From positions 2,001,127 to 2,033,126 of the forward strand of contig NC_004459.3 in the NCBI RefSeq assembly GCF_000039765.1: DNA of 32,000 nt, in the 5' to 3' direction. The first letter of the stretch is position 1. Every line of letters starts with the position of its first letter. The notes beneath the pieces were generated by a model that did not search any database, was not told the origin of the DNA, and saw nothing but the letters and a program-made list of their open reading frames with translations. Source of the DNA: Vibrio vulnificus CMCP6 (lineage in GTDB: Bacteria; Pseudomonadota; Gammaproteobacteria; Enterobacterales; Vibrionaceae). Both the position numbers and the translations under genes were made by a program. This document shows positions 7,953 through 26,885 of the stretch, in pieces.

Positions 7953-8348
7953 TTATTGGTAGCGGCCTTGGCGCTGCAAAAACTCGATTTTGTATCCGTC
8001 TGGGTCGGTGATAAAGAAGAAGGTCGCAAGGTGTTTTTGGTTGTGATCCATCGCTTTCACATCACTGGGTGCTATCCCTAAATCGCGTAGGCGTTTATGA
8101 GCGAGTTCGATGTCTTCGACGCACACTGCAAGGTGGCCGTAGCCTGTCCCATGTGTGTAGGGATCACTCATGCCGTGATTGTAAGTCAACTCAAGCTCGA
8201 AGCCGGTGGTTTTGTTGGCGAGGTAAGTCAGAGTGAAAGTATCGAAAACAAATTGGTCTTTGATTTCGAGTTCTAGTGCATCACGGTAGAAAGCGATCGA
8301 TCTGTCGAGATCGCTGACACGGATCATGCTGTGAATCATTTTGGTCAT
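7953..8348 (-). CDS. VOC-family protein, lactoylglutathione lyase (glyoxalase I)-like
   Basis: HSMIRVSDLDRSIAFY...ELELTYNHG...GYGHLAV...ITDPDGYKIEF parallels E. coli GloA (HTMLRVGDLQRSIDFY...IELTYNWG...AYGHIAL...VEDPDGYKIEL). Confidence 0.75.
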   Translation of the reverse strand: MTKMIHSMIRVSDLDRSIAFYRDALELEIKDQFVFDTFTLTYLANKTTGFELELTYNHGMSDPYTHGTGYGHLAVCVEDIELAHKRLRDLGIAPSDVKAMDHNQKHLATFFFITDPDGYKIEFLQRQGRYQ

Positions 8349-8419
8349 GGTGGTTCCTCATTGCGAGGCGACAGAATAATGTTGAGAAACCAACCTTTGG
8401 TAGTACGTGAGTATTACAT

Positions 8420-8845
8420 TTAAATTTGTCTATTTACGAGCTCTTGGCGCGCCACTTCGATGACGTTAGTGGGTTGGCGAGCATACATCAAGCAGGCGCA
8501 ACGCAGTAGCGAGGCAAAGTTTGAGACTTCACCATTGTGCTCAAGTGCTTCGCGATAGACGGTACTGATGAACTTCGGCACGGTTAGCTGCTGAGCGTCA
8601 GCAATCTCTTGTAAAATATCCCAGTAACTGGCTTCCAGTTTGACGCTGGTGGCGTGTCCGTCTATTCGGATCGAGCGTGTAATGGTTTGGTAATTTTCTT
8701 TGGGCTGCTTAGCAAAAATTTCACACATAGCGGGAAGGGCACCGTTAGGGTTGAAAAGCGTTACATACTGGCGACTAATTGGTATTCCGTCAACCTCTGG
8801 AAAAATCGCTTTATTAGCGCGCAAAACAAAATAAGAAAGCGCCAT
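8420..8845 (-). CDS. Ribbon-helix-helix domain protein (RHH_4-like)
   Basis: Region ITRSIRIDGHATSVKLEASYWDILQEIADAQQLTVPKFISTV resembles the RHH family annotated next to sulfur/arylsulfatase genes. Assignment from memory only. Confidence 0.5.
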   Translation of the reverse strand: MALSYFVLRANKAIFPEVDGIPISRQYVTLFNPNGALPAMCEIFAKQPKENYQTITRSIRIDGHATSVKLEASYWDILQEIADAQQLTVPKFISTVYREALEHNGEVSNFASLLRCACLMYARQPTNVIEVARQELVNRQI

Positions 8846-8895
8846 CTGGCACTTTCTTATTTGAATCTAAGGCTTTACCTGCTCATCAACCGAGC

Positions 8896-10473
8896 TTATT
8901 TCACCTGATTTTTAATGAACTCGCCCAACTCGGAATGATGCAGGATGCGCGATACTGGCAAAATCGTCTCTGCTGGTCCCCAAGCAAAAACATTCACTGG
9001 TGTATGGGTGTGTGTGCCTGTCCCCCAGACGATATTTTGCTTAGTCGCTTGCTCACGAGCGATCAGGTTGGTTCTGTCGTTGTATGGGAAAAACGCATCA
9101 AAGTCGTTAATGGCTGGCACGGTTTCCTCAGCAAGATAGCTGTGGTTGGCCAAACGATATGGATTGGGTTTGTTCTTCAGGATGTTTTCAGCTTGGCCTG
9201 CGGTAATCGAAAAATCACTATTTTTATTGATGATTTCTGCTAGTTTTGCCGCGGTTTGCTGATTTTTATCCAACTTTTCAAACGCACTAAGCATGCCATA
9301 GTAGCTGGTTTTTTGGTTGTACAAACCATCGAGAATATCGAAAGCACCAAAGTTAAAGTTCGGCGCATAATCACGATTTTCGAATGCTTTTCCCGGGCGT
9401 TTCTCTGGTTTTGGCAGATTATAGCCTGAGTAGCTAAAGCCAAAAGAGCCGGTTTCGTGGTCCGCCGTGACAATAATCAAAGTGTCATCACGATCTTTAG
9501 CCCATTGGTAAACCGTATTAATCGCTTCATCAAACTTGATCATTTCATGCAGCATTGAACCGGCATCATTGCTGTGGCCAGCCCAGTCGATTTGTCCGCC
9601 TTCAACCATCAAGAAGAAACCGTCTTTGTCCTTGGCTAGGATATCCAAGGCTTTGCTGGTCATTTCTGCCAGTGTTGGTTCTTTGCGCTCTGCGTCACCT
9701 TTGGTTTGGCTGTATGTGATGCCATCGTACATGGCTGAGTTGGCAAAAAGACCCAAAAGTTTCGTCCCTTGCGCTTGCTCTAGCATGGTTTTATTGAATG
9801 CCAGAGAGTAACCCGCTTGTTGCGCTTCCGTCAGCAAGTTGCGATCATCTTTGCGTTTTGATTTTAATGCAACGTCACCTTGAGTTAGGGCTTGTAACTG
9901 TTGATAGGTTTCACCTTTGTCGTTTGCCGATTTTGGAATCCAATGACGCAAACCACCAGACAGCAGCACATCGACATCGGTAGCAAGCATGTCAGCGGCA
10001 ATTTCATTTTCCAACGAGCGATGAGGCTGGTGGGCGGCAAAGGCAGCAGGAGTGGCGTGCGTCATGCGAGTGTCGGAAATGATGCCGGTGGCTTTGCCCA
10101 TACGTTTTGCTTTTTCGAGTACAGTTTCGACGCTGTTCCCTTGCGAATCGATGCCGATCACTTCTGAACCTGTCATGATGCCGGTCGCCAGCATGGTGGC
10201 AGAACAGGCTGAATCCACCACAATCGCGTCTTCTGGATGCGTCAGCGATGAGCCGATAACGCCTTCTTGAGCGAGAGTGTAAAGTGCGGTGGTTTTGCCT
10301 TGGTAGATGGAATTTGGCGCGTTGTTGGCGTAGGTTTCCAATAGGCCAACTTGTTGTGGCCCCATGCCATCACCAATCATCAAAATGACGTTTTTAATTT
10401 CTGCAGAAAGTGCATTAAAAGAGAGCGTAGAAGTTGCTACAACGGCAACAACGGGTTTGATCAGGTGCTTCAT
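8896..10473 (-). CDS. Alkaline phosphatase (PhoA family, secreted)
   Basis: Signal peptide, metal/active-site motifs IGDGMGP, DSACSATMLATG (nucleophile Ser), DWAGHSND, VTADHETG. Confidence 0.85.
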   Translation of the reverse strand: MKHLIKPVVAVVATSTLSFNALSAEIKNVILMIGDGMGPQQVGLLETYANNAPNSIYQGKTTALYTLAQEGVIGSSLTHPEDAIVVDSACSATMLATGIMTGSEVIGIDSQGNSVETVLEKAKRMGKATGIISDTRMTHATPAAFAAHQPHRSLENEIAADMLATDVDVLLSGGLRHWIPKSANDKGETYQQLQALTQGDVALKSKRKDDRNLLTEAQQAGYSLAFNKTMLEQAQGTKLLGLFANSAMYDGITYSQTKGDAERKEPTLAEMTSKALDILAKDKDGFFLMVEGGQIDWAGHSNDAGSMLHEMIKFDEAINTVYQWAKDRDDTLIIVTADHETGSFGFSYSGYNLPKPEKRPGKAFENRDYAPNFNFGAFDILDGLYNQKTSYYGMLSAFEKLDKNQQTAAKLAEIINKNSDFSITAGQAENILKNKPNPYRLANHSYLAEETVPAINDFDAFFPYNDRTNLIAREQATKQNIVWGTGTHTHTPVNVFAWGPAETILPVSRILHHSELGEFIKNQVK

Positions 10474-10630
10474 TGTCTATCCCTTATTTATAAAAGCGGC
10501 GCCATTACAGCACTGCTTTGTGACACTTTTGCTGCAGACACAAAAACTTCATGAAAGTGAAAAAATCAGTAAAAAGAGCGCGTTGTGACAAACTTGAGCG
10601 AGCAATAATGGCGTCTGATTGAGCAAAAGA

Positions 10631-14202: not shown

Positions 14203-14362
14203 GACTTTCCTTAAGAATACGAATGGCAAAAACTTGGCGCGTATTGTCGCAAATGATCAAATAAATATCTATACGCAAACGTTTGCTTTGGGTCGTTTTT
14301 AAGCATATTTAATGTGGACGCCCTTTTTTTAGCCATTTGATTCAGTTTGTTAAGAAAACCCG

Positions 14363-14390
14363 TTGATTTACCGAAATGAACTCGTATAAT
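14363..14390 (+). promoter_or_regulatory. Sigma70-type promoter of the tRNA-Arg gene
   Basis: TTGATT (14363-14368), 16-nt spacer, TATAAT (14385-14390), 14 nt before the mature tRNA 5' end. Confidence 0.6.
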
Positions 14391-14404
14391 CCTGTCCCTG
14401 TAGC

Positions 14405-14481
14405 GCGCCCTTAGCTCAGCTGGATAGAGCACGTCCCTTCTAAGGATGTGGTCGTAGGTTCGAATCCTACAGGGCGTGCCA
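14405..14481 (+). tRNA. tRNA-Arg (anticodon UCU), CCA encoded
   Basis: Manual cloverleaf: acceptor GCGCCCT/AGGGCGT (G1-U72), D arm GCTC-AGCTGGATA-GAGC, anticodon arm CGTCC-CTTCTAA-GGATG, variable TGGTC, T arm GTAGG-TTCGAAT-CCTAC, discriminator G, then CCA. 77 nt. Confidence 0.95.
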
Positions 14482-14490
14482 TATTCTATA

Positions 14491-14531
14491 AGGCCTGACA
14501 GCTTATTAAGTTGTCAGGCCTTTGTCGTTTT
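14491..14531 (+). terminator. Intrinsic terminator after the tRNA
   Basis: 10-bp perfect stem aggcctgaca/tgtcaggcct followed by tttgtcgtttt. Confidence 0.7.
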
Positions 14532-14540
14532 GGGTGTTTA

Positions 14541-14564
14541 TAGTCGGCTAAGTAGTCGGTTAAG
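14541..14564. repeat. Tandem 12-mer TAGTCGGCTAAG / TAGTCGGTTAAG
   Basis: Two adjacent copies with one mismatch, 60 nt after the tRNA 3' end. Confidence 0.5.
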
Positions 14565-14649
14565 CTTGTAGCTTAATGTAATCATCTGTAATGAATACAT
14601 AAGTTCGCTTTCTTCTCGCGGCTAGGTATTTGAGACTAAAATGCAAATC

Positions 14650-14674
14650 AGCCCCACTGTGAGGCTGATTGATC
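14650..14674 (-). terminator. Hairpin terminating the four-gene operon
   Basis: aatcagcc/ccactgtga/ggctgatt, 4 nt downstream of the stop at 14678. On the minus strand it is followed by tgcatttta (a modest U-tract). Confidence 0.45.
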
Positions 14675-14677
14675 TAT

Positions 14678-15466
14678 TTAATTAGAGTTTTTCCTATAAA
14701 ACACAACCATCTCACTGATTGAATTAAATTTGCTACCAACCTCTTTCCAAACGCACTCTTCACAAAGAAGCCCTCGTCCATATCTTGCTGTTTTCTCACC
14801 GCAGCATAGGCAGATAGGATCATTGGTCTTTATACTGTTTTCTGCAATCTCTGTATCTTTGCATAGTTGTTCTATGGTTGACTCAGGCCAGCGAAGCATT
14901 TCAACTAAGTCTTCCCAATGATTTAAGAGATAGTTGAATACTTCTTCTGAGCTTAATAATTTAACTGGGCTTTTAGATGGATAAAGCTGCCGAGCCATCT
15001 TGTGTGTATCCACTCTTAGGATTATGTCTATATCTTCGGGGACAGCTTCAGGTAACAAATGACGACTGCTCTCGAAAGGGATATCCATCACTACCGATAT
15101 GTTAGAGGTTAAGTCTTTAGTGTATGCATCAACTTGAAATCCAGATTTGGTACATTCAACCTCCCATTGCACATCATTAAAATCCCACTCATCTAAATCA
15201 AAGTTAACTAGAGTTGGGAGCTGTTGCCTTATAATCAGTGCCAATGCAGTAACGGGGGAGAATTCACACTCAGAACTTGTTGTATTTTTATCGGTACGGT
15301 GTGCAAAGTGCCATTGGTTGATATTTCCCAACCTCGCAGTAACTGAGGTTCCACATGATAAACAATGACAGTTGCAATCATCGCCACGCTCCACTTGCTC
15401 AATCCCCACTATTCGGTTTGAACTGTTACTGCGAGCGAAAGGCATAAGGACTTGAAATGAAGACAT
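14678..15466 (-). CDS. CoiA-like (PD-(D/E)xK-type) nuclease candidate with N- and C-terminal zinc-ribbon motifs; fourth gene of the NTase operon
   Basis: 262 aa. CNCHCLSCG-x14-HFAH is the CoiA-family N-terminal signature. Candidate nuclease core QVDAY...ISVVMDIPFESS. C-terminal CLCCGEK...CEEC ribbon. ATG with AGAGG SD; only 11 nt separate it from the upstream stop. Confidence 0.55.
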   Translation of the reverse strand: MSSFQVLMPFARSNSSNRIVGIEQVERGDDCNCHCLSCGTSVTARLGNINQWHFAHRTDKNTTSSECEFSPVTALALIIRQQLPTLVNFDLDEWDFNDVQWEVECTKSGFQVDAYTKDLTSNISVVMDIPFESSRHLLPEAVPEDIDIILRVDTHKMARQLYPSKSPVKLLSSEEVFNYLLNHWEDLVEMLRWPESTIEQLCKDTEIAENSIKTNDPICLCCGEKTARYGRGLLCEECVWKEVGSKFNSISEMVVFYRKNSN

Positions 15467-15477
15467 ATAAAGACCTC

Positions 15478-16599
15478 TTATACGGCTTGCTCTAAGTCAT
15501 CATTAAACTCAGTCAGTCTAATAGATGGCTCTGCGTGGGGTAAGTTAGTAATTGATACCCCCCAAGGGTAAGGGGTTTTGTTATCTTTTTCGTATTGGTA
15601 AATCGTAATGTGAGGAAGGTTCCGTCTGTCGTACGCTTGACCAAATTTGAATGCTACGCTGTTTTGAGAAGCTAATACGAGGTGTATATCGTTATAGCCT
15701 TCTTCCATGAGATTTTTAACTTCTTCGATCAAATCATAAGCTAAACGACTTTGCTTTTTACTTGACCAGTGATTATCAAAACGCTTTTCCCTCAGTTTCA
15801 AATGTATCTGTGGCATCTTTGGAAAACAGAGGTCAATAGCTTTCTCATCAACAGGGTAAGAGAAAGATACAGCAAGAACGATAGATTCTTTGCTATCAGC
15901 ATGCTTTATTGTCTTTTCAAACTTCTCATTGTCGTCACTAATCGGATCGAGTTCTTTCCAGCTTGATAGTTGTCGATCCCAGTCGAGCACTTCAATATGA
16001 GACTCATCATCCAACAAATATCCTGATAGGAAAGCAAAAGGAACAGGAACTAAACCACCATAAACAATGTGAAAATCTTCAGCAGCAACACTATTTCTTC
16101 GCTCTTCTATAGAGTGCTCTAGATTGAGGAATTTCTTAAGTGCTAATTTGGGTTGGCTTACAGTGCCATTGGCAAGACTGTCTCGGATATCTATTACTGT
16201 ATTGGAAATATTTCGGCCTTTGTATTTTTTCTGAACGTGCTCTGATAGTGGTGAGTCAGATGTGTTTACGAGTCCTCTTTGCTCAATAGCGAATACAATT
16301 TGTTTAGCCAATTGTCGGTGTTCTATAACTGAGCGGACTATCTGCCAAGCTAGCCCAGTTGCCATTAGGAGTATACTGAAATAAAAACCGATAGAAACGA
16401 GTAGAGCAGGGACATCAGAACCAGCAACGTCAAGGCTAATGAGTTGGCTAGCTGTTACGTATTGAACATTGAATGCTACGCCTCCCATCAATGTTATCGG
16501 GAAGAAATAGGCTCCTGTCCTGAAAATTAACAAGGCAGGAGAGCGTTTTCTGAATAGCCAGTTGATGGTCTGAACAACGATATAAGTCAAAAGGTTCAT
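15478..16599 (-). CDS. 2TM-SAVED effector (Cap14-like: N-terminal transmembrane helices plus C-terminal SAVED sensor)
   Basis: 373 aa. The N-terminal ~95 aa contain 2-3 hydrophobic helices. The C-terminal part carries SAVED-like repeats (FHIVYGGLVPVPFAFLSGYLL ... IHLVLASQNSVAFKFGQAYDRRNLPHITIYQYE). Its ATG overlaps the upstream TAA by 1 nt (TAATG). Confidence 0.7.
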   Translation of the reverse strand: MNLLTYIVVQTINWLFRKRSPALLIFRTGAYFFPITLMGGVAFNVQYVTASQLISLDVAGSDVPALLVSIGFYFSILLMATGLAWQIVRSVIEHRQLAKQIVFAIEQRGLVNTSDSPLSEHVQKKYKGRNISNTVIDIRDSLANGTVSQPKLALKKFLNLEHSIEERRNSVAAEDFHIVYGGLVPVPFAFLSGYLLDDESHIEVLDWDRQLSSWKELDPISDDNEKFEKTIKHADSKESIVLAVSFSYPVDEKAIDLCFPKMPQIHLKLREKRFDNHWSSKKQSRLAYDLIEEVKNLMEEGYNDIHLVLASQNSVAFKFGQAYDRRNLPHITIYQYEKDNKTPYPWGVSITNLPHAEPSIRLTEFNDDLEQAV

Positions 16600-17090
16600 T
16601 ACTTTCCTTTGTTTGCTGGTTGATGGTGAGAGTTGTTGATTTGATCCATATATTGCTCAATAGTTAGTTCACCAGGGTGAACACCACCACCACGCCATTC
16701 TCCATCTGATAACCAAAGCTCCCAGTACCACAGCCATTCTTGCGTCCATGGGATGATTGATTCAGCGATTAACATACTAGGCACCCAGTCTTTGGAGCTA
16801 CCGTTGTTAAACATTAGGCAGGGTTTAGTATTCCCTTTGGAGAAGAACTCATGAGGTGAGCGCTTCCCTCCTGCTAGATCTCTTAGATTCGGGGACAACA
16901 CCTCGACCTCAGGAATACAACCTAACCCAGCCCATTTAACAAGGATTAGGTATTCTCGGGTAAGTCGAGAAGGTTGTAGTACTTGTCTCCATTCCAGTTT
17001 TAGACCTGTTTTACCTTTGAGTATTCTACCTTTGCCACCATGGTAACGTTTTTGTAGCGCGTTAAGCTGCCTTTGAAGGTGATGGCACAT
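16599..17090 (-). CDS. Small E2 (UBC-fold)-like protein
   Basis: 163 aa. SPH80-x10-C91-LMF...W102VPSMLIAESIIPW mirrors the E2 HPN-x(~9)-C...W..P pattern. Its ATG abuts the NTase stop with zero spacing. Confidence 0.55.
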   Translation of the reverse strand: MCHHLQRQLNALQKRYHGGKGRILKGKTGLKLEWRQVLQPSRLTREYLILVKWAGLGCIPEVEVLSPNLRDLAGGKRSPHEFFSKGNTKPCLMFNNGSSKDWVPSMLIAESIIPWTQEWLWYWELWLSDGEWRGGGVHPGELTIEQYMDQINNSHHQPANKGK

Positions 17091-18347
17091 CTATACATCA
17101 CCGTAGAAGTTGTGTTTAGGAACGGGGGTGGCAGTGGCTGCATTGGATACTCCTAAACCAATAGAAGAAACTACCGCACGATTTTTCGCTCGTCGTTCAG
17201 TCAGAGTGTCCGCAAGTTTGGCTTGGATGCCTCTTGCTGCTTGAGAACCAAACATTTCTCTTGAGCGCTCAATGGTTTTATCAAGCCCTTGATCTAATTC
17301 AAGTAGTTTTGCTAGGTCTTCAGTAACCTGCGTATACCACGCTTTAAATGCTTGGGGTAACATCGGTTTCTCATGCCATTTATCTGCAAAATTCTCCGTA
17401 GGAAGTGCTGGGTTACGAATAGTGTACTTTAAAGTACCGTCAGACTGATATTGATGGGAAATGAAGTTTGGCATTTCTTCAAGTACATCTAACATCAGAT
17501 CAAATGGGTTGTGGTATTCCTTGTTAGAGTTTGAGCACTTTTCATAAGCTAGACCTGCTAGAGTCGTAATAATTATGCTTATTGGTGCGCAATCGCCATA
17601 AGCGTTCTGCTTATTTTGTTTCCACATGTCTCTATGTCGCTTGAGAAGCTGAACTACAATCTGAAGTACAGTCTTTCGACCCTGACCAGGTAACGGTTCT
17701 ACTGTCCCCGCATGTATATCATTATTAGATCTGTAGTTGCTTTTTCTATTCCAGCGAATCTCTTTACTACACGCGCTTCGGAACCACTTCCTATATCCGT
17801 ATGGATGAGAAGGACTATTGGCATCCTTGATGTCTGCAACTCTCACTTTGCTCTTATGGTTTGGCGAGTCCATATCTTCAGGCATGCTAGGGGTGATGTC
17901 CATGTGGAACCCCTGGCCTTCGATACCTCCATATTGCAGAGTGACACATCTGCGTTTTGGCATATTCTCTATTTTGTCACCGTATCGTTGAGAGTCTTTC
18001 AGCACTCGTATCAAATTGAAGAGTAGCTCGTTGGCTTCATCAGTAGTTGTTGGATAGTGCTGACTTGGTAAGTGGAGCACCAGATCTATATCCATGTCTG
18101 AGTCTTCATCAATCGGTTTTACGGATGTGCCAATACCAACACTACCTTGAGCATAAATGTGGCATTCCGCTAGCTTGCCCCCCTGGTTTGCCAAGTAGGA
18201 TCCGATTGCTCGGTAAGCCGTCTTCAATTGAGACAACTGTGTTTCGGTCAAGTCTAGGTTCGATGTGATATGAGAGATCATCTCGAAACAAAATTCTTTA
18301 TCGCTTGCACTTAGTTGTCTTAGTGATTTGAAACCTTGATCTTGCAC
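17091..18347 (-). CDS. Pol-beta superfamily nucleotidyltransferase, CD-NTase/SMODS-like (putative signal synthase)
   Basis: 418 aa. G68-S69 ... D84-M-D86-I-D88 ... FHMD149ITP is the GS/DxD/D catalytic layout of cGAS/DncV-like NTases. GTG start preceded by AGGAGA at 5-nt spacing. Confidence 0.7.
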   Translation of the reverse strand: MQDQGFKSLRQLSASDKEFCFEMISHITSNLDLTETQLSQLKTAYRAIGSYLANQGGKLAECHIYAQGSVGIGTSVKPIDEDSDMDIDLVLHLPSQHYPTTTDEANELLFNLIRVLKDSQRYGDKIENMPKRRCVTLQYGGIEGQGFHMDITPSMPEDMDSPNHKSKVRVADIKDANSPSHPYGYRKWFRSACSKEIRWNRKSNYRSNNDIHAGTVEPLPGQGRKTVLQIVVQLLKRHRDMWKQNKQNAYGDCAPISIIITTLAGLAYEKCSNSNKEYHNPFDLMLDVLEEMPNFISHQYQSDGTLKYTIRNPALPTENFADKWHEKPMLPQAFKAWYTQVTEDLAKLLELDQGLDKTIERSREMFGSQAARGIQAKLADTLTERRAKNRAVVSSIGLGVSNAATATPVPKHNFYGDV

Positions 18348-18401
18348 AGCTATCTCCTAGTGGTTTTGGTTGGTTAATAACCGATTATACCGATTGAGAT
18401 T

Positions 18402-18431
18402 ATTATGATAGATCGAAATGATACGTGTCAA
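18402..18431 (-). promoter_or_regulatory. Candidate sigma70 promoter of the NTase operon
   Basis: On the minus strand: TTGACA (18431-18426), 18-nt spacer, CATAAT (18407-18402), ~55 nt upstream of the GTG. Confidence 0.45.
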
Positions 18432-18458
18432 TGATCTTTTTGTGTATTTGTTTTGTGT

Positions 18459-18468
18459 TGTAATTACA
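18459..18468. promoter_or_regulatory. Perfect 10-bp palindrome TGTAATTACA in the divergent intergenic region (candidate WYL-regulator operator)
   Basis: Self-complementary. Overlaps a possible -35 (TTACAC, 16-nt spacer, TACGAT) for the WYL gene. Flanked by related TACGTGTCAATGAT / TACACGTGATGAT elements. Confidence 0.3.
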
Positions 18469-18520
18469 CGTGATGATTTTTTTGCTACGATCTGGCTAGA
18501 TTGAACAATGGATACGCATC

Positions 18521-19423
18521 ATGGAAAACAGTTCTCAAGCAGACATCACATCAGAGACAACCTCTATTAACGCTCGTTTAGCTTATATTGACTTTAAGTT
18601 GTTTTTTACAGGGCGTGTTAGTCGGGCTGATCTTAAAGATGCGTTTGGAATTGCAGAAGCAGCCGCTTCCCGAGTTCTTACTGAATACTCCAAACGTAGG
18701 CCAAACAACAAAACTCAAAAAACGAATACGATTATCAGGAAATCCTTCGAACCATTGACAGATATAGATGGTGAATTGGCGCTTGGCATGCTTGCCAATG
18801 GATTTAATAGCAACAAGATCTTCGGTGTTACTGAGCTTGCCTATGAAAAGATTGGCAAGTTTCCCAACCAAATGAATACCAATGAAGTCGCTATGATTAC
18901 TAGGGCGATATCGGGTAAGTATGCGATTTCCTGCAACTATCTTTCTGAAAACAGCTCTAATCATCAAACTAGAACCTTAGTTCCGTTGGCAATTATGTAT
19001 GATGGAACCAGTTGGATGTTCAGAGCATTTGATCGTTCAGAAGTCAAAAAGAATAAATTTAAAAACTTCCATTTTGCTCGTGTTAGGAATGTGGTTGAAG
19101 AACATGAATCTAAGGAGTCTAGGCAGCATGATCATGAGGCTTTAGCTCAAGATAAGCTGTGGAACTTAAGGTTACCTTTGATCTTAAAACTCCACCCCTC
19201 GTTGTCAGAGATGGACAAGCAAAAAGTAAGAACTGACTTTGGTATACCTGAAGATAAAGATGAGGTTTATGTTACAGAGAAAGCTGCATTTAGATGGATT
19301 GTTGAGAAAAAGTGGTATATCGATGCTCGGTCAAATGAAGAAAAGCGAGAGGATAAGCAAAGTCGTTTTTATAAGTTCGAGCTAAGCAACTTGGAAATGA
19401 TAAAACAAATGGAACAGGCCTAA
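18521..19423 (+). CDS. WYL-domain transcriptional regulator (CapW/BrxR-like: wHTH, WYL, C-terminal extension)
   Basis: 300 aa. N-terminal HTH-like RADLKDAFGIAEAAASRVLTEY. WYL-type core LVPLAIMYDGTSWMFRAFDRS...FKNFHFARVRNV. Divergent from the NTase operon. Confidence 0.7.
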   Translation: MENSSQADITSETTSINARLAYIDFKLFFTGRVSRADLKDAFGIAEAAASRVLTEYSKRRPNNKTQKTNTIIRKSFEPLTDIDGELALGMLANGFNSNKIFGVTELAYEKIGKFPNQMNTNEVAMITRAISGKYAISCNYLSENSSNHQTRTLVPLAIMYDGTSWMFRAFDRSEVKKNKFKNFHFARVRNVVEEHESKESRQHDHEALAQDKLWNLRLPLILKLHPSLSEMDKQKVRTDFGIPEDKDEVYVTEKAAFRWIVEKKWYIDARSNEEKREDKQSRFYKFELSNLEMIKQMEQA

Positions 19424-19610
19424 ACCTAAACCACACTAATAAATTTGAATCCGATAACTTGAGATTGTTCGGTTAAAAACAACTTTTCGACCTGTTGATT
19501 GAATTTCTTTTTACTTCAATGGCTTTGGACTGGTTTGAATCTGTAAAAGCGTGATGCTGACTACTTTGTATCGGGGAATAGAGACGGTGGTATTGTTGCT
19601 AGATAGAAGT

Positions 19611-19635
19611 CTCTTGCAGCCGAGGGCTGCAAGAG
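19611..19635. terminator. Hairpin between the convergent WYL gene and hsdS
   Basis: 11-bp perfect stem ctcttgcagcc/gag/ggctgcaagag. Weak T-tracts, so its terminator function is uncertain. Confidence 0.4.
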
Positions 19636-19688
19636 TTGTCGATGTTAGCTTGAGAGGTTTTTGTTGGCGATATTGTAGAGACTCATAG

Positions 19689-21371
19689 TTATACTGCTCG
19701 CTCAACAATTGCATCGGTGAGGTGTAATTGGGTGATTTGAGACTCTCGAAGTCTGACTTTTAAGCGCTCACATATACTGAGCAAGTCACTAACTTTTTCT
19801 GTGATACGGACTTGTTCATTTAGAGGAGGAAGCGGTAAGTGCATTTCACCAACATCACTCAACCTAAAGCTATTTTTAATACCTCGTTGTGGAGCATCAA
19901 ACTGATATTTAGCTAGTGGAGACCTCATAAAATCAGGGAAGTATTTTCCTTGGCATTCTGGCATAAATCGTAATAAGCACGTATGTTGGTTTATGTATGC
20001 TTCACCAAACTCTTCAGGAATTAATCCCAAGTTACCGACATCACCTGTTATGGAAATTAATAGATCTCGCGCCTCCAATTTAGTTCGAGAGCCTTCGCCC
20101 CCTTTAGGTGGGCGTACAAACCTTAAATTGTCTAAACGCAGCTCGTAGCTGCCTCGGGATAAATTGCCCATGGTGACAAATAGAGCACCAGAGTCAGAGT
20201 AATATTTAGCCCAATCTCGAGAACCCGATGTAGTAAATAGAGCTACATCTTGAATTCGACACCACTCCCAGCCACTCGGCAGTTCAAACGGCTTTTCATC
20301 TTCAGCAATCGGCGGCAGCGCTTTTTGCTTCTTGATTTTCTTATCTTTGACTAACTGCGCTTTTTCATCCGCAATTCTTTTCAGTAACTCAGCAGCAGGC
20401 TCATCGCTTGGATCTTGTGGAACCAACTTACCCATTACCGCCAGTTGTAAGATGGTTTGTTTAAGCTGGTCGATACTCTCTTCAGTGCTGAATAAGGTAT
20501 CGAAATGCTCACTGATTCGCGCCCAGTTTTGCATTAACTCGTCAGCATCGGCAGAGTTGGTGAGTGTGTCCAACAGTGTTGTTACCAGCAATTGATGCGC
20601 TTCAATACTGGCTTCGGTTTGCTGCTCTAGTTGGTCGCAGAGCGCCATTAGCTCATCGACTTTGGCGACGATGCGGTGTTGCTCGTCGGAAGGGGGGATA
20701 CAAACTACTAGCGCGTTAGCTTCATTTCTATTTAAGCCTGGTTTTATACCCTTTCCGAGTGAGTCTAACCCTAAAGTTTGTAAATGTAGAAAACAATACT
20801 TAAGGCTTATACCTACAGGTGGTATTAAGCTGTAGGCTACATCTGTAACCCAGCAAGGTTGGTCACTTAAATTAATTGCACCCGCAGATCCTTTACGACC
20901 GATAACGAGACAAGGGCTACCAACAGAAAAAAGATTGTGAGTCCCTACAGAACCATTAGAGCCATAGACTAAAAATTCACCACTTTCAGTACGTTTTGCT
21001 TTTGGGAGATTATCCCCATAAACCAAGCTATAAATATCACCAAAATAACAAGCTTGCCAACCTTCTGGTAAAGCAAACGTTATATCTTGTTTTTTAATAG
21101 CAGGGAGCTTTTTGGGCTTTGTAATTTTTTTTTCTTTAATTAACTGCGTTTTTTCCTCTGAAATCCGTTGAAGTAAAAAAGATGCAGGTTCATCGTTTGG
21201 GTTTTGAGGAACGAGTTTGCCGCGAACTGCTAGTTCTAAAATTAGCTCACGCAGCTTCTTAACACCGTAAAGCTCTAGTTTCTTGCTGCTACCGCGACCA
21301 GAGGTCGATTTGGTCTTTACTGCCGAAGTCCAGATATCAATATGCTCGGTAATCAGGTTTTCGACTGCCAT
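19689..21371 (-). CDS. hsdS: Type I restriction-modification specificity subunit HsdS
   Basis: 560 aa with two variable TRDs. Two copies of the conserved spacer LAV(R/M)GKLVPQ(N/D)P(N/S)DEPA..LL.RI..EK.QL(I/V)K(E/D)KKI.K.K.LP. 1-nt overlap with the hsdM stop. Confidence 0.9.
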   Translation of the reverse strand: MAVENLITEHIDIWTSAVKTKSTSGRGSSKKLELYGVKKLRELILELAVRGKLVPQNPNDEPASFLLQRISEEKTQLIKEKKITKPKKLPAIKKQDITFALPEGWQACYFGDIYSLVYGDNLPKAKRTESGEFLVYGSNGSVGTHNLFSVGSPCLVIGRKGSAGAINLSDQPCWVTDVAYSLIPPVGISLKYCFLHLQTLGLDSLGKGIKPGLNRNEANALVVCIPPSDEQHRIVAKVDELMALCDQLEQQTEASIEAHQLLVTTLLDTLTNSADADELMQNWARISEHFDTLFSTEESIDQLKQTILQLAVMGKLVPQDPSDEPAAELLKRIADEKAQLVKDKKIKKQKALPPIAEDEKPFELPSGWEWCRIQDVALFTTSGSRDWAKYYSDSGALFVTMGNLSRGSYELRLDNLRFVRPPKGGEGSRTKLEARDLLISITGDVGNLGLIPEEFGEAYINQHTCLLRFMPECQGKYFPDFMRSPLAKYQFDAPQRGIKNSFRLSDVGEMHLPLPPLNEQVRITEKVSDLLSICERLKVRLRESQITQLHLTDAIVERAV

Positions 21372-22861
21372 TATTGTTCTCCACCTTGCTTTTTACCTTG
21401 AATGGTAGAGCTAAGAGCATCACCGAGAATGCTTTTCAGTTGGTCACGCAGTGCTTTGATGTCTTGTTGTTGCTGCTGATAGTTCGCCAGCAACTCTTCA
21501 GGGTCATGGCTGACGACTTCGTCCTGATACGGGTTTTTAATATCAAGGTTAAAGTTGCGCTCGATAATATCTTCAATCGACACTTTCCAAGCTTGCTTGG
21601 TCTCGATGCGGCTAGCGAATCCATCTGCCTCGTTGCCCCACCAATCGATCTCTTGCTGGAACTCCTCAAACTTCATCGGTTTGGTTTTGCTGTAGTTCTT
21701 CACGCCTTCTGGGTAAGGGTGCTCATAGAACCACACTTCTTTGGTCGGTTGGCCTTTGGTAAAGAACAGAATGTTGGTCTTAATACCTGTGTATGGGTTG
21801 AACACGCCATTAGGTAAGCGAACAATCGTGTGCAGGTTACACTCTTCCGTCAGCATCTTTTTGATTTTGGTTTTTACACCTTCACCAAACAAGGTGCCAT
21901 CAGGCAACACTACACCTGCGCGACCCTCTTTATCCAATACTTCGACAATAAGTTGCAAGAACAAATCGGCCGTTTCACGAGTTTGCATTTCGGCAGGGAA
22001 GTTCTTTTCAATCCCGTCCTCTTCTGTACCGCCAAACGGTGGGTTAGTCGCAATCACGTTGATATTGCTATCCCAACTTGAAAGCGGCTTATTGAGCGTG
22101 TTGCCATGCTTAATCTGCACAGGGACTTCGATGCCGTGGAGCATCATATTGGTGATACACAGCAAATGTGGCAGTTGTTTCTTCTCTACACCATGAATTT
22201 GCTTTTGCAGTGTTTGGTGGTCGGCTGCGCTTGTCACGTAGTTCTCTTTGACGTGATCGAACGAGCAAGCTAAGAAACCGCCCGTGCCGCAAGCGGGATC
22301 CATAATTTGCTCACCTAGCTTTGGATCCAGTCTGTTGACGATAAAACGAGTCACCGCGCGAGGGGTATAGAACTCACCCGCATTACCTGCACTTTGTAGG
22401 TCGCGTAGGATTTGTTCATAGATATCACCAAACAGGTGGCGTTCTTTAGAGTCAGTAAAGTCGATTTCGTTGAGCTTGTTAATCACTTGACGAAGCAGTG
22501 TGCCATTTTTCATGTAGTTGAAGGCATCACTAAAAGCTTCTTTCACCACAAAACCGCGTGGGTTGGTGTCTTTCGGTGCGGTTAGGTTTTTTAACGTCGG
22601 GAATAGGTCATCATTGATAAATTCCAGCAGCTCGTCACCTGTAATGCCTTGGTTATCTGCCGCCCAGTTACGCCAAAGGTACTTGGCTGGGATGGGTTCG
22701 CGGTAATCATCTAACTCGAACTCTAGCTCTTCCTCTTGGGCATCAAACACTTTAAGGAATAAAAGCCACGACATTTGGCCTAGACGCTGCGCGTCACCAT
22801 CAACACCCGCATCTTTACGCATGATGTCTTGAATAGACTTGATAACTGAACTGATTGACAT
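21371..22861 (-). CDS. hsdM: Type I R-M N6-adenine DNA methyltransferase HsdM
   Basis: 496 aa. HsdM N-terminal domain (IQDIMRKDAGVDGDAQRLGQMSWLLFLK), SAM motif DPACGTGGFL, catalytic NPPFG. Confidence 0.95.
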   Translation of the reverse strand: MSISSVIKSIQDIMRKDAGVDGDAQRLGQMSWLLFLKVFDAQEEELEFELDDYREPIPAKYLWRNWAADNQGITGDELLEFINDDLFPTLKNLTAPKDTNPRGFVVKEAFSDAFNYMKNGTLLRQVINKLNEIDFTDSKERHLFGDIYEQILRDLQSAGNAGEFYTPRAVTRFIVNRLDPKLGEQIMDPACGTGGFLACSFDHVKENYVTSAADHQTLQKQIHGVEKKQLPHLLCITNMMLHGIEVPVQIKHGNTLNKPLSSWDSNINVIATNPPFGGTEEDGIEKNFPAEMQTRETADLFLQLIVEVLDKEGRAGVVLPDGTLFGEGVKTKIKKMLTEECNLHTIVRLPNGVFNPYTGIKTNILFFTKGQPTKEVWFYEHPYPEGVKNYSKTKPMKFEEFQQEIDWWGNEADGFASRIETKQAWKVSIEDIIERNFNLDIKNPYQDEVVSHDPEELLANYQQQQQDIKALRDQLKSILGDALSSTIQGKKQGGEQ

Positions 22862-24266: not shown

Positions 24267-25595
24267 TCACGATTGGATTTCAGCAGCTTGTATATCATCC
24301 GCTTTGCTACGTAGAGCTAGGTACAACACCCAAGTGATTAGCGCATCAGCAGTAATGCCCAAGCCGAACATTATGGCGATTCGTTCAAGCGTAGGTACAA
24401 AGATACCGATTTGATAAAGCACAAAAGCACAACCGTAAAACAAGGTGTTTACGATAAGTGATTGATACAGCATTAAATCCGTGCGTCCAATACCATAAAA
24501 GTAACTGTCGATGACATTGTTTAAACTGAAAATGACATAGAACCCAACCATTAGCCAAACTAGACTGGTGATTGATTCTGGGTTCTCTATCCCCATGACA
24601 TCGGCTATAAAGCTGTTCCAAAGCGGTGCGGTTAGTATCCAAATAGCAATAATTCCCAACGTTATCCAAAGGTAGCAATTGACTCGCTCCGATGTTAATC
24701 CATTATTTGTTGCAGCATCTTGCTTAACCAGTTGCCCTAATGTCAAAACGGGAAGTAGTAGCCAGCCCCAAATAAATTGATTAGCAACCCAGAATGTTCC
24801 CGCTTGTTGTACTTGGTTAATAAGCTGAAGAATCATGACAATAAAGGCAGTATTTCGCACGAGTGACTCAAGCCCTGACTTCCATCCAATCTTTGCCCAT
24901 TCTTTGAGCCATTGCGACTGCTCTCCTTTAGAAAACTTGAAGCTCAGAGTGATCCCTGATTTAGATAAATAAATCAGGGCAAACAGTGCGAGAAGACTAT
25001 TGACTACGATATTACTCAGAGCAATACCATTCACTCCAAACTGAAGGGAGTAAGGTAGTTGACTGACGAAGACGCTGTCACAAAGGACAGTCATGAGCAT
25101 TTGTACTATTAGAAGGCCATACAGCGCCTTTCGTTCATTTCTTAGGACGAGAACCAAAGACAAAAAAGCATAGAAGCTGGAGAGCAAAATAGCGGCAGAT
25201 TCCAATCGAATGTATTGGATCGTTTGGGTCAATAATTCAGCCTGTTGCTGCATAGCATCTACAAAATTCGGGGCTAGCCACAATACCATTAAGGTCACCA
25301 CAAAGTAGCAAATTAAGGTAACCAAAAGAGATAGACTGGCTCGTTCGCGAAAAGCTTCATTACTATGAATAACTCTGCCTAGAATAAATGCTAGAGGGAT
25401 AAGTAATGCTTCGCTGAGGACTTCATATCCTACATTTAGCCATGCAACTTGTGCTGCAATGCTAAAAGTCCATGGGCTAGGGATGCTGCCCAAGAAATGG
25501 ATTCGTGTAGTTGAGTAGATTAATGGTATTAAGCTTGTCAGAATCAGCACTAGCCACAGTTGGTAGTTGATTGTTTTTATTTGATGATGTTTCAA
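24267..25595 (-). CDS. Polytopic membrane protein, MATE/MOP-superfamily-like (exporter or flippase type)
   Basis: 442 aa, hydrophobic throughout with many (about 10-12 by eye) TM segments. TTG start 3 nt after the upstream stop, with AAGG upstream, suggesting translational coupling. Confidence 0.55.
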   Translation of the reverse strand: MKHHQIKTINYQLWLVLILTSLIPLIYSTTRIHFLGSIPSPWTFSIAAQVAWLNVGYEVLSEALLIPLAFILGRVIHSNEAFRERASLSLLVTLICYFVVTLMVLWLAPNFVDAMQQQAELLTQTIQYIRLESAAILLSSFYAFLSLVLVLRNERKALYGLLIVQMLMTVLCDSVFVSQLPYSLQFGVNGIALSNIVVNSLLALFALIYLSKSGITLSFKFSKGEQSQWLKEWAKIGWKSGLESLVRNTAFIVMILQLINQVQQAGTFWVANQFIWGWLLLPVLTLGQLVKQDAATNNGLTSERVNCYLWITLGIIAIWILTAPLWNSFIADVMGIENPESITSLVWLMVGFYVIFSLNNVIDSYFYGIGRTDLMLYQSLIVNTLFYGCAFVLYQIGIFVPTLERIAIMFGLGITADALITWVLYLALRSKADDIQAAEIQS

Positions 25596-25598
25596 TTT

Positions 25599-26885
25599 TT
25601 AAGCCTTGTTATCTTCACTAGGGATCTCGTGGAGAAAGCAACTCTCCACAGAGAAATAGCCATTACTTTTAATCAGTTGTTTCTTTCTAAGCCGTTCGAA
25701 CAGTGTGATTAGGTACTGATAAAGCTCAGTATATTGCGCTGTACTGATATGAGTTGCTGAGCAGTTAAATACTTGCCATGGGAAATTAATCAATGTTGTA
25801 GCGGCATGTTTGGGAAGGTAGTTGTGTTTAAACTCACTTAGCAATAAATGTTCTAGCTGAACACAATAGTGCTGGATGATAGAGCAGTGAAAGTGGTACT
25901 TGTAACTGTCGTTGTTAGCGATAAGGTTCGGTAAGGAGCAAAATAAAAAGTAAACCTGAGCGGCCAACTCTTTGGCTTGCTTTCGCTCGCTTGTATGTGT
26001 TTTGGTAACGGCGTCTAATTGTTCTGCAAGACCAAGCTCACCCTTTAAAATAGTGAAATGAACGTTGTAGATTTGTGACTCACGATAATAAAGAGAAATG
26101 TCAGACAGCGATTGGCCTATAACGATTTCTATAAGCAAACGGTCTTGTGTCCTAAGAGTGATTTTCGACCCCAAAATATCGGTATGAGCCACTTGTTCAC
26201 CGAACAATCTAAGGAGTCTTTCATGCCAACCTTGAACCGAAATCGATGACTGAATAAATAAATCGATATCAGAGCGCTTTGTTAACTGATTAGCCCCCAA
26301 GCTTCCGTAAAGTAGAGCTATAGGTACGCTTGTATCTGTGCTCAATACTTTATTCAGCTTACTGACCCAAGTGTGTTGAGATAATGGGAAGGCCGTCCAG
26401 AAGGCATCAAAGTTATCAGAGAAGTCAAAACTGTAAGACTGCCAAATCTGTCTTTGCCAGTGAGTTTCTAGCTCTATCGGTATGATTTTATCTTCCAAAA
26501 ATCTAATAGTTTCATCAACAGCTTGCAGTTTTTTGTAGGATGATGGGTAAGGGATTTCTGAGTATTTCTCGTCATCAATTGCATTGATGCTCTGCTCAAT
26601 ATCTCTAGTGCAACAGATTAATATGCCTGTTTTCCTATCTAATTGATTGGTAAGAAGGCTAGCTGTTTGACCGTATCCTGTAAATTCAACAATAGCGTTT
26701 TCCTGTTGTTTAACCGCAGCAAGGAAATGCTCACAAGCAAGTTGCTCACCTTGCTCGGTTCCATCGCCAAAGCGAATTCGATACTCATCTAAAGATAAAT
26801 AAGGGAACTCAGGCAAACGTCCTTGTATTTGTTTACTTAACGTTGTTTTACCTGAATTTAGGTTACCAAAAATATAGATATGCAT
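25599..26885 (-). CDS. Fusion protein: N-terminal P-loop NTPase/kinase-like domain, pol-beta nucleotidyltransferase domain, helical C-terminal domain
   Basis: 428 aa. Walker A G7NLNSGKTT. NTase signature YG194S-x10-D206ID208LF. All-helical C-terminal ~170 aa. Lies 56 nt downstream of hsdR on the same strand. Confidence 0.6.
   Translation of the reverse strand: MHIYIFGNLNSGKTTLSKQIQGRLPEFPYLSLDEYRIRFGDGTEQGEQLACEHFLAAVKQQENAIVEFTGYGQTASLLTNQLDRKTGILICCTRDIEQSINAIDDEKYSEIPYPSSYKKLQAVDETIRFLEDKIIPIELETHWQRQIWQSYSFDFSDNFDAFWTAFPLSQHTWVSKLNKVLSTDTSVPIALLYGSLGANQLTKRSDIDLFIQSSISVQGWHERLLRLFGEQVAHTDILGSKITLRTQDRLLIEIVIGQSLSDISLYYRESQIYNVHFTILKGELGLAEQLDAVTKTHTSERKQAKELAAQVYFLFCSLPNLIANNDSYKYHFHCSIIQHYCVQLEHLLLSEFKHNYLPKHAATTLINFPWQVFNCSATHISTAQYTELYQYLITLFERLRKKQLIKSNGYFSVESCFLHEIPSEDNKA

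Follow-up and report, generated by a model that had tools for sequence, protein, structure and literature searches.

A 32,000-nt stretch of Vibrio vulnificus CMCP6 DNA (contig NC_004459.3, positions 2,001,127 to 2,033,126; hereafter the window, with positions counted from its first letter) contains four closely packed minus-strand genes, a divergent plus-strand gene and a neighboring tRNA-Arg gene. In order of transcription, the four genes encode a nucleotidyltransferase of the CD-NTase type (gene 1, the cyclase), an E2 protein (gene 2), a membrane effector (gene 3) and a zinc-finger protein (gene 4). The divergent gene encodes a regulator with a WYL domain. An earlier reading of the locus, made from the sequence alone and referred to here as the original prediction, had proposed a short type II cyclic oligonucleotide-based antiphage signaling system (CBASS), or else a related signaling system. 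Genes 1-3 are predicted to constitute a canonical three-gene E2-CBASS (type II short). The core locus is an ordinary instance of a well-studied anti-phage system with its usual repressor, and so of an already-known kind. Gene 4 is not a core CBASS part. The five open reading frames (ORFs) are not chance occurrences, because they match PADLOC and Pfam profiles.

The product of gene 1 matched the PADLOC cyclase model PDLC00780 (1.2e-103) and, in Pfam, DncV-like_NTFase (2e-10) and SMODS (3e-7). Residues 7-417 aligned over the full length with the solved Serratia marcescens cyclase SmCdnG (PDB 8hsb_A, E=7e-50), with approximately one third of the residues identical as judged by eye from the alignment. 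The catalytic core is present (QGSV67-70, D86/D88 and D150), in agreement with the GS...DxD...D layout of a CD-NTase that had been recognized earlier, and QGSV, the DxD pair and the FYG glycine are common to both cyclases. The C-terminus reads VPKHNFYG416-DV as compared to VPKNTFYG406-E in SmCdnG; two residues (DV) therefore follow the conjugation glycine in the window cyclase, whereas one (E) does in the Serratia protein. This C-terminus was sought at 17 loci and could be recovered in 10, and all 10 of these E2-CBASS relatives keep VP(K/R)HxF(Y/F)G followed by 1-4 trailing residues. We assign gene 1 as a predicted CdnG-like CD-NTase with conserved catalytic residues and conjugation glycine.

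Gene 2 matched the PADLOC E2 model PDLC00863 (1.8e-46) and the solved SmE2 (PDB 8hsb_B, E=4e-17). Its product is 163 aa long and carries no further domain. Residues H80, C91 and H137 align with SmE2 H87, C101 and H152, such that the Cys and both His are kept, and these three residues are essential in the S. marcescens system (bioRxiv 10.1101/2022.05.25.493364; PMC12948482). The H80-x10-C91 spacing and W115 are also present, which upholds the E2-like H-x10-C...W core proposed for this protein. No E1 or JAB match was found among the scanned ORFs of 14.6-32 kb. The original prediction was wrong in treating the lone E2 as a departure from the textbook architecture. E2-only CBASS is a defined class, found in 616 genomes and mostly with clade-G cyclases (PMC12948482; bioRxiv 10.1101/2022.05.25.493364), and SmCdnG-SmE2 structures have been solved. 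A solitary E2 is the defining trait of this subtype and is therefore no anomaly. The S. marcescens operon (SmCdnG-SmE2-Exo-2TM-SAVED; PDB 8hsb, 8yjy, 9kkb) belongs to the same type II short class and likewise encodes a 2TM-SAVED effector. The two operons differ in three respects: in the window, no Exo gene separates the E2 gene from the effector gene, a CoiA_N-type zinc-finger gene instead follows the effector, and a divergent WYL repressor is present.

Gene 3 was expected to join transmembrane helices to a SAVED-like sensor, and both parts were recovered. Pfam SAVED (3e-38) is fused to Saf_2TM (1e-23), NCBIfam SAVED matched at 4e-54, and the PADLOC 2TM effector model PDLC00707 matched at 3.5e-142. 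The Saf_2TM-SAVED protein of Bacillus CBASS (Cap14) is a nucleotide-gated channel (PMC10402079). Cap14 of Bacillus thuringiensis, a 2',3'-cGAMP-gated chloride channel, has the same Saf_2TM-SAVED architecture as the window effector by Pfam and PADLOC. The cyclases of the two systems differ, however: the window cyclase is CdnG-like and is accompanied by an E2, whereas the Bacillus thuringiensis enzyme is a CdnB in a two-gene type I operon. The other possibility that had been raised, an operon for a related but distinct nucleotide-signaling system that is not CBASS, is so improbable that we regard it as excluded. In its favor there is only a fourth gene without an assignment and the missing E1 and JAB. 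Against it, the cyclase and the E2 match SmCdnG and SmE2 over their full lengths and keep every catalytic residue and the conjugation glycine, the effector matches a CBASS 2TM-SAVED model, and E2-only CBASS is a described class.

The divergent gene encodes a predicted CapW/BrxR-family repressor, as had been proposed. Its product matched Pfam WYL (9e-7), and residues 17-275 align with residues 15-265 of the Escherichia fergusonii BrxR (PDB 7qfz, cited in PMC9122601) at E=2e-24. It also matched CapW structures 7tb5, 7tb6 and 9c5g (1e-14 to 9e-9) and the Acinetobacter BrxR 7t8k (1e-7), and its close homologs carry precomputed WHD_BrxR and WYL domain matches. The alignment with these solved CapW and BrxR proteins (9c5g, 7tb5, 7tb6, 7qfz, 7t8k) runs end to end, although the best match is the E. 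fergusonii BrxR rather than a named CapW. The gene lies upstream of the operon on the opposite strand, as CapW genes do. CapW genes are located upstream of and opposite to CBASS operons, including type II (short) systems and systems with Cap14 effectors (PMC9122588). The WYL gene stays beside CBASS despite differing flanks, including in relatives whose effector identity is as low as 57%, and because this divergent pairing is kept where the other flanks differ, the regulator belongs to the CBASS and not to the neighboring type I restriction-modification genes. Given the cyclase, E2, effector and WYL matches, a type II short CBASS under CapW-like control is the correct label for this locus.

The cyclase and the WYL gene share an intergenic region of 173 nt. 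Within it lies the top promoter-like site detected by a consensus scan of 14300-19800, the candidate CBASS promoter. The best-conserved intergenic block in an alignment of six orthologous intergenic regions is CGTATCATTTCGATC, a 15-nt block in the -35/-10 spacer of this candidate promoter, and may plausibly be bound by the repressor. At 18458-18469, approximately 50 nt ahead of the start codon of the WYL gene, is a perfect 12-bp palindrome, GTGTAATTACAC, of which relatives keep only the half-site GTGTAAT.

The junctions of the minus-strand genes are tight, and the coordinates and lengths of all five ORFs were borne out (Table 1). The cyclase stop and the E2 start are separated by 0 nt (17091/17090), the E2 and effector genes overlap by 1 nt (nt 16599 is common to both), and the effector and gene 4 are separated by 11 nt (15467-15477), with a GAGG Shine-Dalgarno sequence 8 nt before the gene 4 ATG. 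In the consensus scan, no terminator-like site was observed on the minus strand between the candidate promoter and the hairpin past gene 4, which likely marks the end of the transcription unit. The sole other minus-strand consensus promoter site in this interval is a weaker match inside the effector gene (15801-15772). These signals are consistent with one transcript from the cyclase to gene 4. It is important to note that promoter and terminator calls of this kind are consensus matches and not proof.

Table 1. Features of the E2-CBASS locus (window coordinates).
Feature	Position	Strand	Details
Divergent CapW/BrxR-family wHTH-WYL-WCX repressor (predicted)	18521-19423	+	300 aa
Candidate CBASS promoter TTGACA-18-CATAAT	18431-18402	-	11/12 consensus matches
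CD-NTase (CdnG-like cyclase), gene 1	17091-18347	-	418 aa, GTG start, GGAG ribosome binding site
CBASS E2, gene 2	16599-17090	-	163 aa
Saf_2TM + SAVED membrane effector (Cap14 type), gene 3	15478-16599	-	373 aa
CoiA_N-type zinc-finger protein, gene 4	14678-15466	-	262 aa
Terminator-like hairpin + T-tract	14670-14646	-	8 nt past the gene 4 stop
tRNA-Arg (anticodon TCT)	14405-14481	+	ARAGORN

A working model of the core system can be proposed in which the components are those identified here and the steps are inferred from homologs in Serratia marcescens, Bacillus and E. coli. In E2-CBASS, the E2 shortens the tail of the cyclase and tethers the enzyme via thioester or isopeptide bonds; release or polymerization of the cyclase leads to synthesis of 3',2'-cGAMP, upon which the 2TM-SAVED effector kills the cell (bioRxiv 10.1101/2022.05.25.493364; PMC12948482). 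CapW binds an imperfect palindrome over the -10 element (PMC9122588), and binding of single-stranded DNA (ssDNA) by the WYL domain of E. coli CapW releases the DNA (PMC11662680). By analogy, a WYL repressor dimer on the shared intergenic promoter region would keep the operon low in the uninfected cell, and ssDNA arising from DNA damage or infection would bind the WYL domain and release the repressor. The E2 (C91, H80) would trim the two residues past cyclase G416 and then hold the cyclase by a thioester or isopeptide bond. Upon infection, the cyclase would be released or polymerized and would produce a cyclic dinucleotide; the closest solved relative, SmCdnG, makes 3',2'-cGAMP. Binding of the nucleotide by the SAVED domain would then cause Saf_2TM to open or disrupt the inner membrane, and the infection would be aborted.

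Gene 4 encodes a CoiA_N-type zinc finger (C31/C33/C35/C38...H53/H56), an alpha/beta core (residues ~64-196) and a CxxC...CxxC zinc ribbon (C219/C222, C235/C238). Only CoiA_N passed the Pfam cut-off (PF25164, 1.3e-7; 31.5 bits compared to a cut-off of 26.3), with weaker matches to the related DUF7828 and DUF7830. The CoiA_N match is present in all 19 of the family members tested, and none of the 19 matched the CoiA nuclease-domain model PF06054 at E values up to 10. An hhalign comparison with a protein named 'CoiA family' by NCBI placed the end of homology at approximately residue 83, after the zinc finger and first helix. AlphaFold2 models of gene 4 (pLDDT 80.6 for the whole protein and 90.3 for the core) display a helix followed by a beta-meander. 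In the modeled core, D113 and D/E128 lie on successive strands and may form an acidic pair; D113 is Gly in 4 of the 19 family members. Two Foldseek searches of the PDB with these models returned nothing at E<0.2, with several PD-(D/E)XK nucleases among the non-significant matches only, and a search of BFVD matched uncharacterized viral proteins only. The family profile searched against PDB sequences gave zinc-ribbon noise only. Because the fold searches gave no significant PDB match, 'nuclease' is a hypothesis for gene 4 and not a finding. The original prediction, right on the identity of four of the five genes, was thus overstated in calling gene 4 a CoiA-like nuclease: the zinc finger and first helix are of the CoiA_N type, but neither PF06054 nor Foldseek supported the nuclease domain.

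The comparison with CoiA itself leads to the same division. CoiA (PF06054) is a competence D-loop ssDNA endonuclease of Bacillota, and it shares with gene 4 an N-terminal zinc finger followed by a helix. The reported layout of its atypical D...E active site resembles that of D113 and D/E128, which are on consecutive strands in the gene 4 models. However, gene 4 has an extra C-terminal zinc ribbon, its homology to CoiA does not extend past residue ~83, and it is found on Vibrio mobile elements rather than in competence regulons. Searches with gene 4 against PADLOC-DB v2.0.0, which we take to include the PD-T4, PD-T7 and PD-lambda models, gave no match. There is a precedent for a CoiA-type domain in defense, since a CoiA-domain protein is a component of a validated E. 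coli anti-phage defense system obtained by functional selection (Vassallo et al. 2022, PMC9519451). Given the lack of a PADLOC match, no membership of gene 4 in that system is claimed.

The gene 4 family is small, with 18 clusters at 90% identity that are almost all from Vibrio. Approximately 13 representatives among 1.8 billion proteins reach full-length E<1e-30. Its alignment is characterized by a C-x-C-x-C-xx-C...WHFxHR finger, an invariant helix ECxFSPxTAxALIxRQ, an invariant IPF and the C-terminal CxxC...CxxC ribbon. A search with only the N-terminal 90 residues matches more than 2,000 representatives. The N-terminal 60-90 residues (finger and helix) also match genes on 2,758 plasmids, mostly conjugative, of Klebsiella, Escherichia, Salmonella and Enterobacter, where the matching genes are annotated as hypothetical or left unannotated. 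These plasmid matches point to a large uncharacterized plasmid-borne superfamily that has a common module. PHROGs gave no match for gene 4 itself and only a weak match for one homolog (E=0.005, function unknown). The ratio dN/dS for gene 4 is approximately 0.14 relative to V. splendidus-type copies, which is similar to the effector and indicates purifying selection. Gene 4 is a live gene and is not decaying.

Homologs of gene 4 occur in several contexts. The 95% and 79% identical homologs are in the same five-gene block, the latter (V. splendidus type) at another chromosomal site beside resolvases, and a metagenomic five-gene block has yet another upstream neighbor. An E2 gene suspected to be broken in the 95% identical relative proved to be an intact ORF and a gene-calling artifact. 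Homologs with 43-53% identity have no CBASS nearby. One of these is between the tail genes and a serine recombinase of a prophage, and two IMG/VR prophage contigs likewise carry the family; others are carried by conjugative elements in the vicinity of HU/DUF2913 and tra genes, in one case with SIR2+DUF87 as neighbors, and one directly follows a GmrSD gene. A 50% homolog on V. parahaemolyticus pVPA3-1 (L068, NC_025152.1, 8169-8993) lies 389 nt after an 'ABC-three component system' (ABC-3C). Homologs of this pVPA3-1 type are carried by the acute hepatopancreatic necrosis disease (AHPND; PirAB) plasmids of V. parahaemolyticus, V. owensii and V. campbellii, where they are annotated as 'hypothetical protein' or 'phosphatidylinositol kinase'; the latter looks like a mis-annotation. 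An all-against-all comparison of neighbors found no partner gene common to the neighborhoods of gene 4 homologs. Viral and metagenome scans for gene 4 contexts yielded two prophage contigs and two short contigs only, tblastn against INPHARED phage genomes gave no match, and megablast for close DNA relatives on plasmids returned the tRNA match only.

These contexts would also be found if gene 4 served the mobile element, as a DNA-processing or recombination helper or as an anti-defense or entry-establishment protein that is merely parked by CBASS. Positions at element edges (the tRNA-Arg junction, the resolvase and serine-recombinase neighbors in V. splendidus-type loci, and the prophage tail genes and recombinase) are in line with such a role, as are the homologs that precede the tra genes of conjugative elements by a few kb, the N-terminal module common to thousands of proteins on conjugative enterobacterial plasmids, and the two prophage contigs. 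However, the immediate neighbors are repeatedly defense systems (CBASS, ABC-3C, GmrSD, SIR2+DUF87), gene 4 has no detectable similarity to recombinases or known anti-defense families, and no INPHARED phage genome encodes it. A role in the service of the mobile element is considered very unlikely.

The association was also analyzed in reverse, from the effector. A contig scan with a 29-sequence effector alignment identified 49 genome loci with related 2TM-SAVED effectors, many with a cyclase and an E2 directly upstream; a single-effector query gave none. A full-length relative of gene 4 was present at only one of the 49 (Enterovibrio coralii, L030), where it is 30% identical and lies 1.5 kb downstream. 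At that locus, a gene for a Zn-dependent phospholipase-C-like protein (PF00882, 6e-25) and a 146-aa ORF lie between the related WYL/E2-CBASS genes and the gene 4 relative (8229-10507), all of them on one strand. A match at a different locus (L017) was short and covered the zinc finger only. Gene 4 with the same 11-nt junction is present only at or above 76% effector identity, in a narrow Vibrio sub-clade, and it is absent at the CBASS loci of 57%, 53% and 40-45% effector identity. The window gene 4 is 43-53% identical to the CBASS-less copies but only 27-30% identical to the Enterovibrio copy, which is equidistant from all other members. The two associations with CBASS are therefore independent, and gene 4 has not co-diverged with CBASS. 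Nor does it display the co-conservation with CBASS across diverse operons that is known for Cap2/3, Cap6-8, Cap17-19 and Exo.

We propose that the locus is a known three-gene E2-CBASS with a CapW/BrxR repressor and that gene 4 is probably autonomous mobile-element or defense-island cargo, captured at the 3' end of the operon and now co-transcribed. One Vibrio lineage would have captured gene 4 at the CBASS 3' end, such that gene 4 is read from the same transcript. Its role is most likely an independent nucleic-acid-directed function, for example that of a stand-alone defense protein or a protein of inter-element competition. An accessory role in CBASS is possible but unsupported. The earlier suggestion of a variant CBASS with a second output or accessory holds only in part, since gene 4 has no recognizable nucleotide-sensor domain, is absent from most CBASS relatives and occurs alone in other mobile contexts.

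Several observations nevertheless weigh against captured cargo, and they are the same ones that favor a lineage-specific CBASS accessory (a new 'Cap') of a zinc-finger or nuclease-like kind. Gene 4 is tightly packed, with a conserved 11-nt junction and its own Shine-Dalgarno sequence, and a terminator-like site is found only after it and not before. It has been kept with CBASS over approximately 20% protein divergence and under purifying selection (dN/dS ~0.14), with the five-gene block intact in at least three flanking contexts at approximately 80% identity; a lineage-specific accessory would look alike. The second, independent copy of the family downstream of a related CBASS, in Enterovibrio, is a pairing with the same CBASS clade and may point to a functional affinity. 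An additional nuclease-like gene would also not be without precedent in this class, because the S. marcescens E2-CBASS carries a nuclease-type Exo gene that tunes signaling (bioRxiv 10.1101/2022.05.25.493364; PMC12948482). A point of a different nature concerns the repressor: no inverted repeat with arms of at least 7 bp overlaps the -10 element, and the 19-24 bp palindromic operator of the CapW type was not found over it in the window, where the conserved block is instead in the promoter spacer.

The accessory could act in more than one manner. Its cleavage or binding of phage or damaged DNA could make or clear the ssDNA sensed by the repressor, it could set a threshold as Exo does in Serratia, or it could provide a second, DNA-directed output. 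The first of these has some appeal in that CapW senses ssDNA and true CoiA is an ssDNA endonuclease, so that a repressor responding to ssDNA and an enzyme directed at ssDNA would pair naturally. However, the closest CBASS relatives outside the sub-clade lack gene 4, and its 43-53% relatives are solo, beside unrelated systems or in prophages and conjugative elements. No SAVED, CARF, STING or other nucleotide-sensor domain was detected in gene 4 by Pfam searches, and the lack of co-divergence with CBASS and the replacement of D113 by Gly in 4 of the 19 family members also speak against an accessory. A dedicated accessory is accordingly judged unlikely. It is quite unlikely that the family consists of undescribed stand-alone nucleic-acid-targeting defense proteins of Vibrio mobile elements, one of which has been recruited here as a partner of a CapW-controlled E2-CBASS, for example by making or removing the de-repressing ssDNA. 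If true, cyclic-nucleotide abortive infection would here be tied to a sensor or effector that acts at the level of DNA.

As regards its core, the locus provides an E2-CBASS from Vibrio in which a Cap14-type effector is combined with a CapW/BrxR repressor; this helps annotation and is not surprising. The one less settled element is the small zinc-finger family found repeatedly beside unrelated defense systems (CBASS, ABC-3C on AHPND plasmids, and GmrSD) and also in prophages and conjugative elements. Should gene 4 act in defense by itself or modify CBASS, the defense catalog would gain a modest entry, and a conserved 'hypothetical protein', or mis-named 'phosphatidylinositol kinase', of Vibrio plasmids would be explained.

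The locus is part of a defense island inserted beside tRNA-Arg. The tRNA-Arg(TCT) gene lies 196 nt from the gene 4 stop, as the original prediction of an operon directly beside it implied. GC content drops from approximately 0.50 to approximately 0.40 exactly at the tRNA gene, with folD (identified by Pfam) on the high-GC side; this step, with folD beyond it, places the five genes at the edge of a horizontally acquired low-GC island. The 32-kb window contains no second copy of the tRNA-Arg 3' end, and a scan of nine large ORFs on the island side (19.7-31.8 kb) gave no match to an integrase family. The far end of the island is therefore probably located beyond 32 kb.

The proportion of synonymous differences (pS) between the five-gene block and two related loci (L007 and L063) is uneven. 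Values for the WYL and cyclase genes are approximately 0.8 (saturated), as compared to 0.58-0.70 in the E2 gene, 0.35-0.51 in the effector gene and 0.55 in gene 4, a pattern which suggests that recombination has reshuffled the 5' and 3' halves of the five-gene module.

The adjacent type I restriction-modification operon is split, with hsdS at 19689-21371, hsdM at 21371-22861 and hsdR at 26942-29419, and four unassigned ORFs lie between hsdM and hsdR. Two of these form a tightly packed pair. The ORF at 25599-26885 (428 aa) matched the Pol-beta nucleotidyltransferase family PF18765 (2.8e-6) and, weakly, PADLOC PDC-M05A, and the ORF at 24267-25595 (442 aa) gave weak matches to MatE and phrog_6241. 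This pair within the restriction-modification operon could be a separate nucleotidyltransferase-based module.

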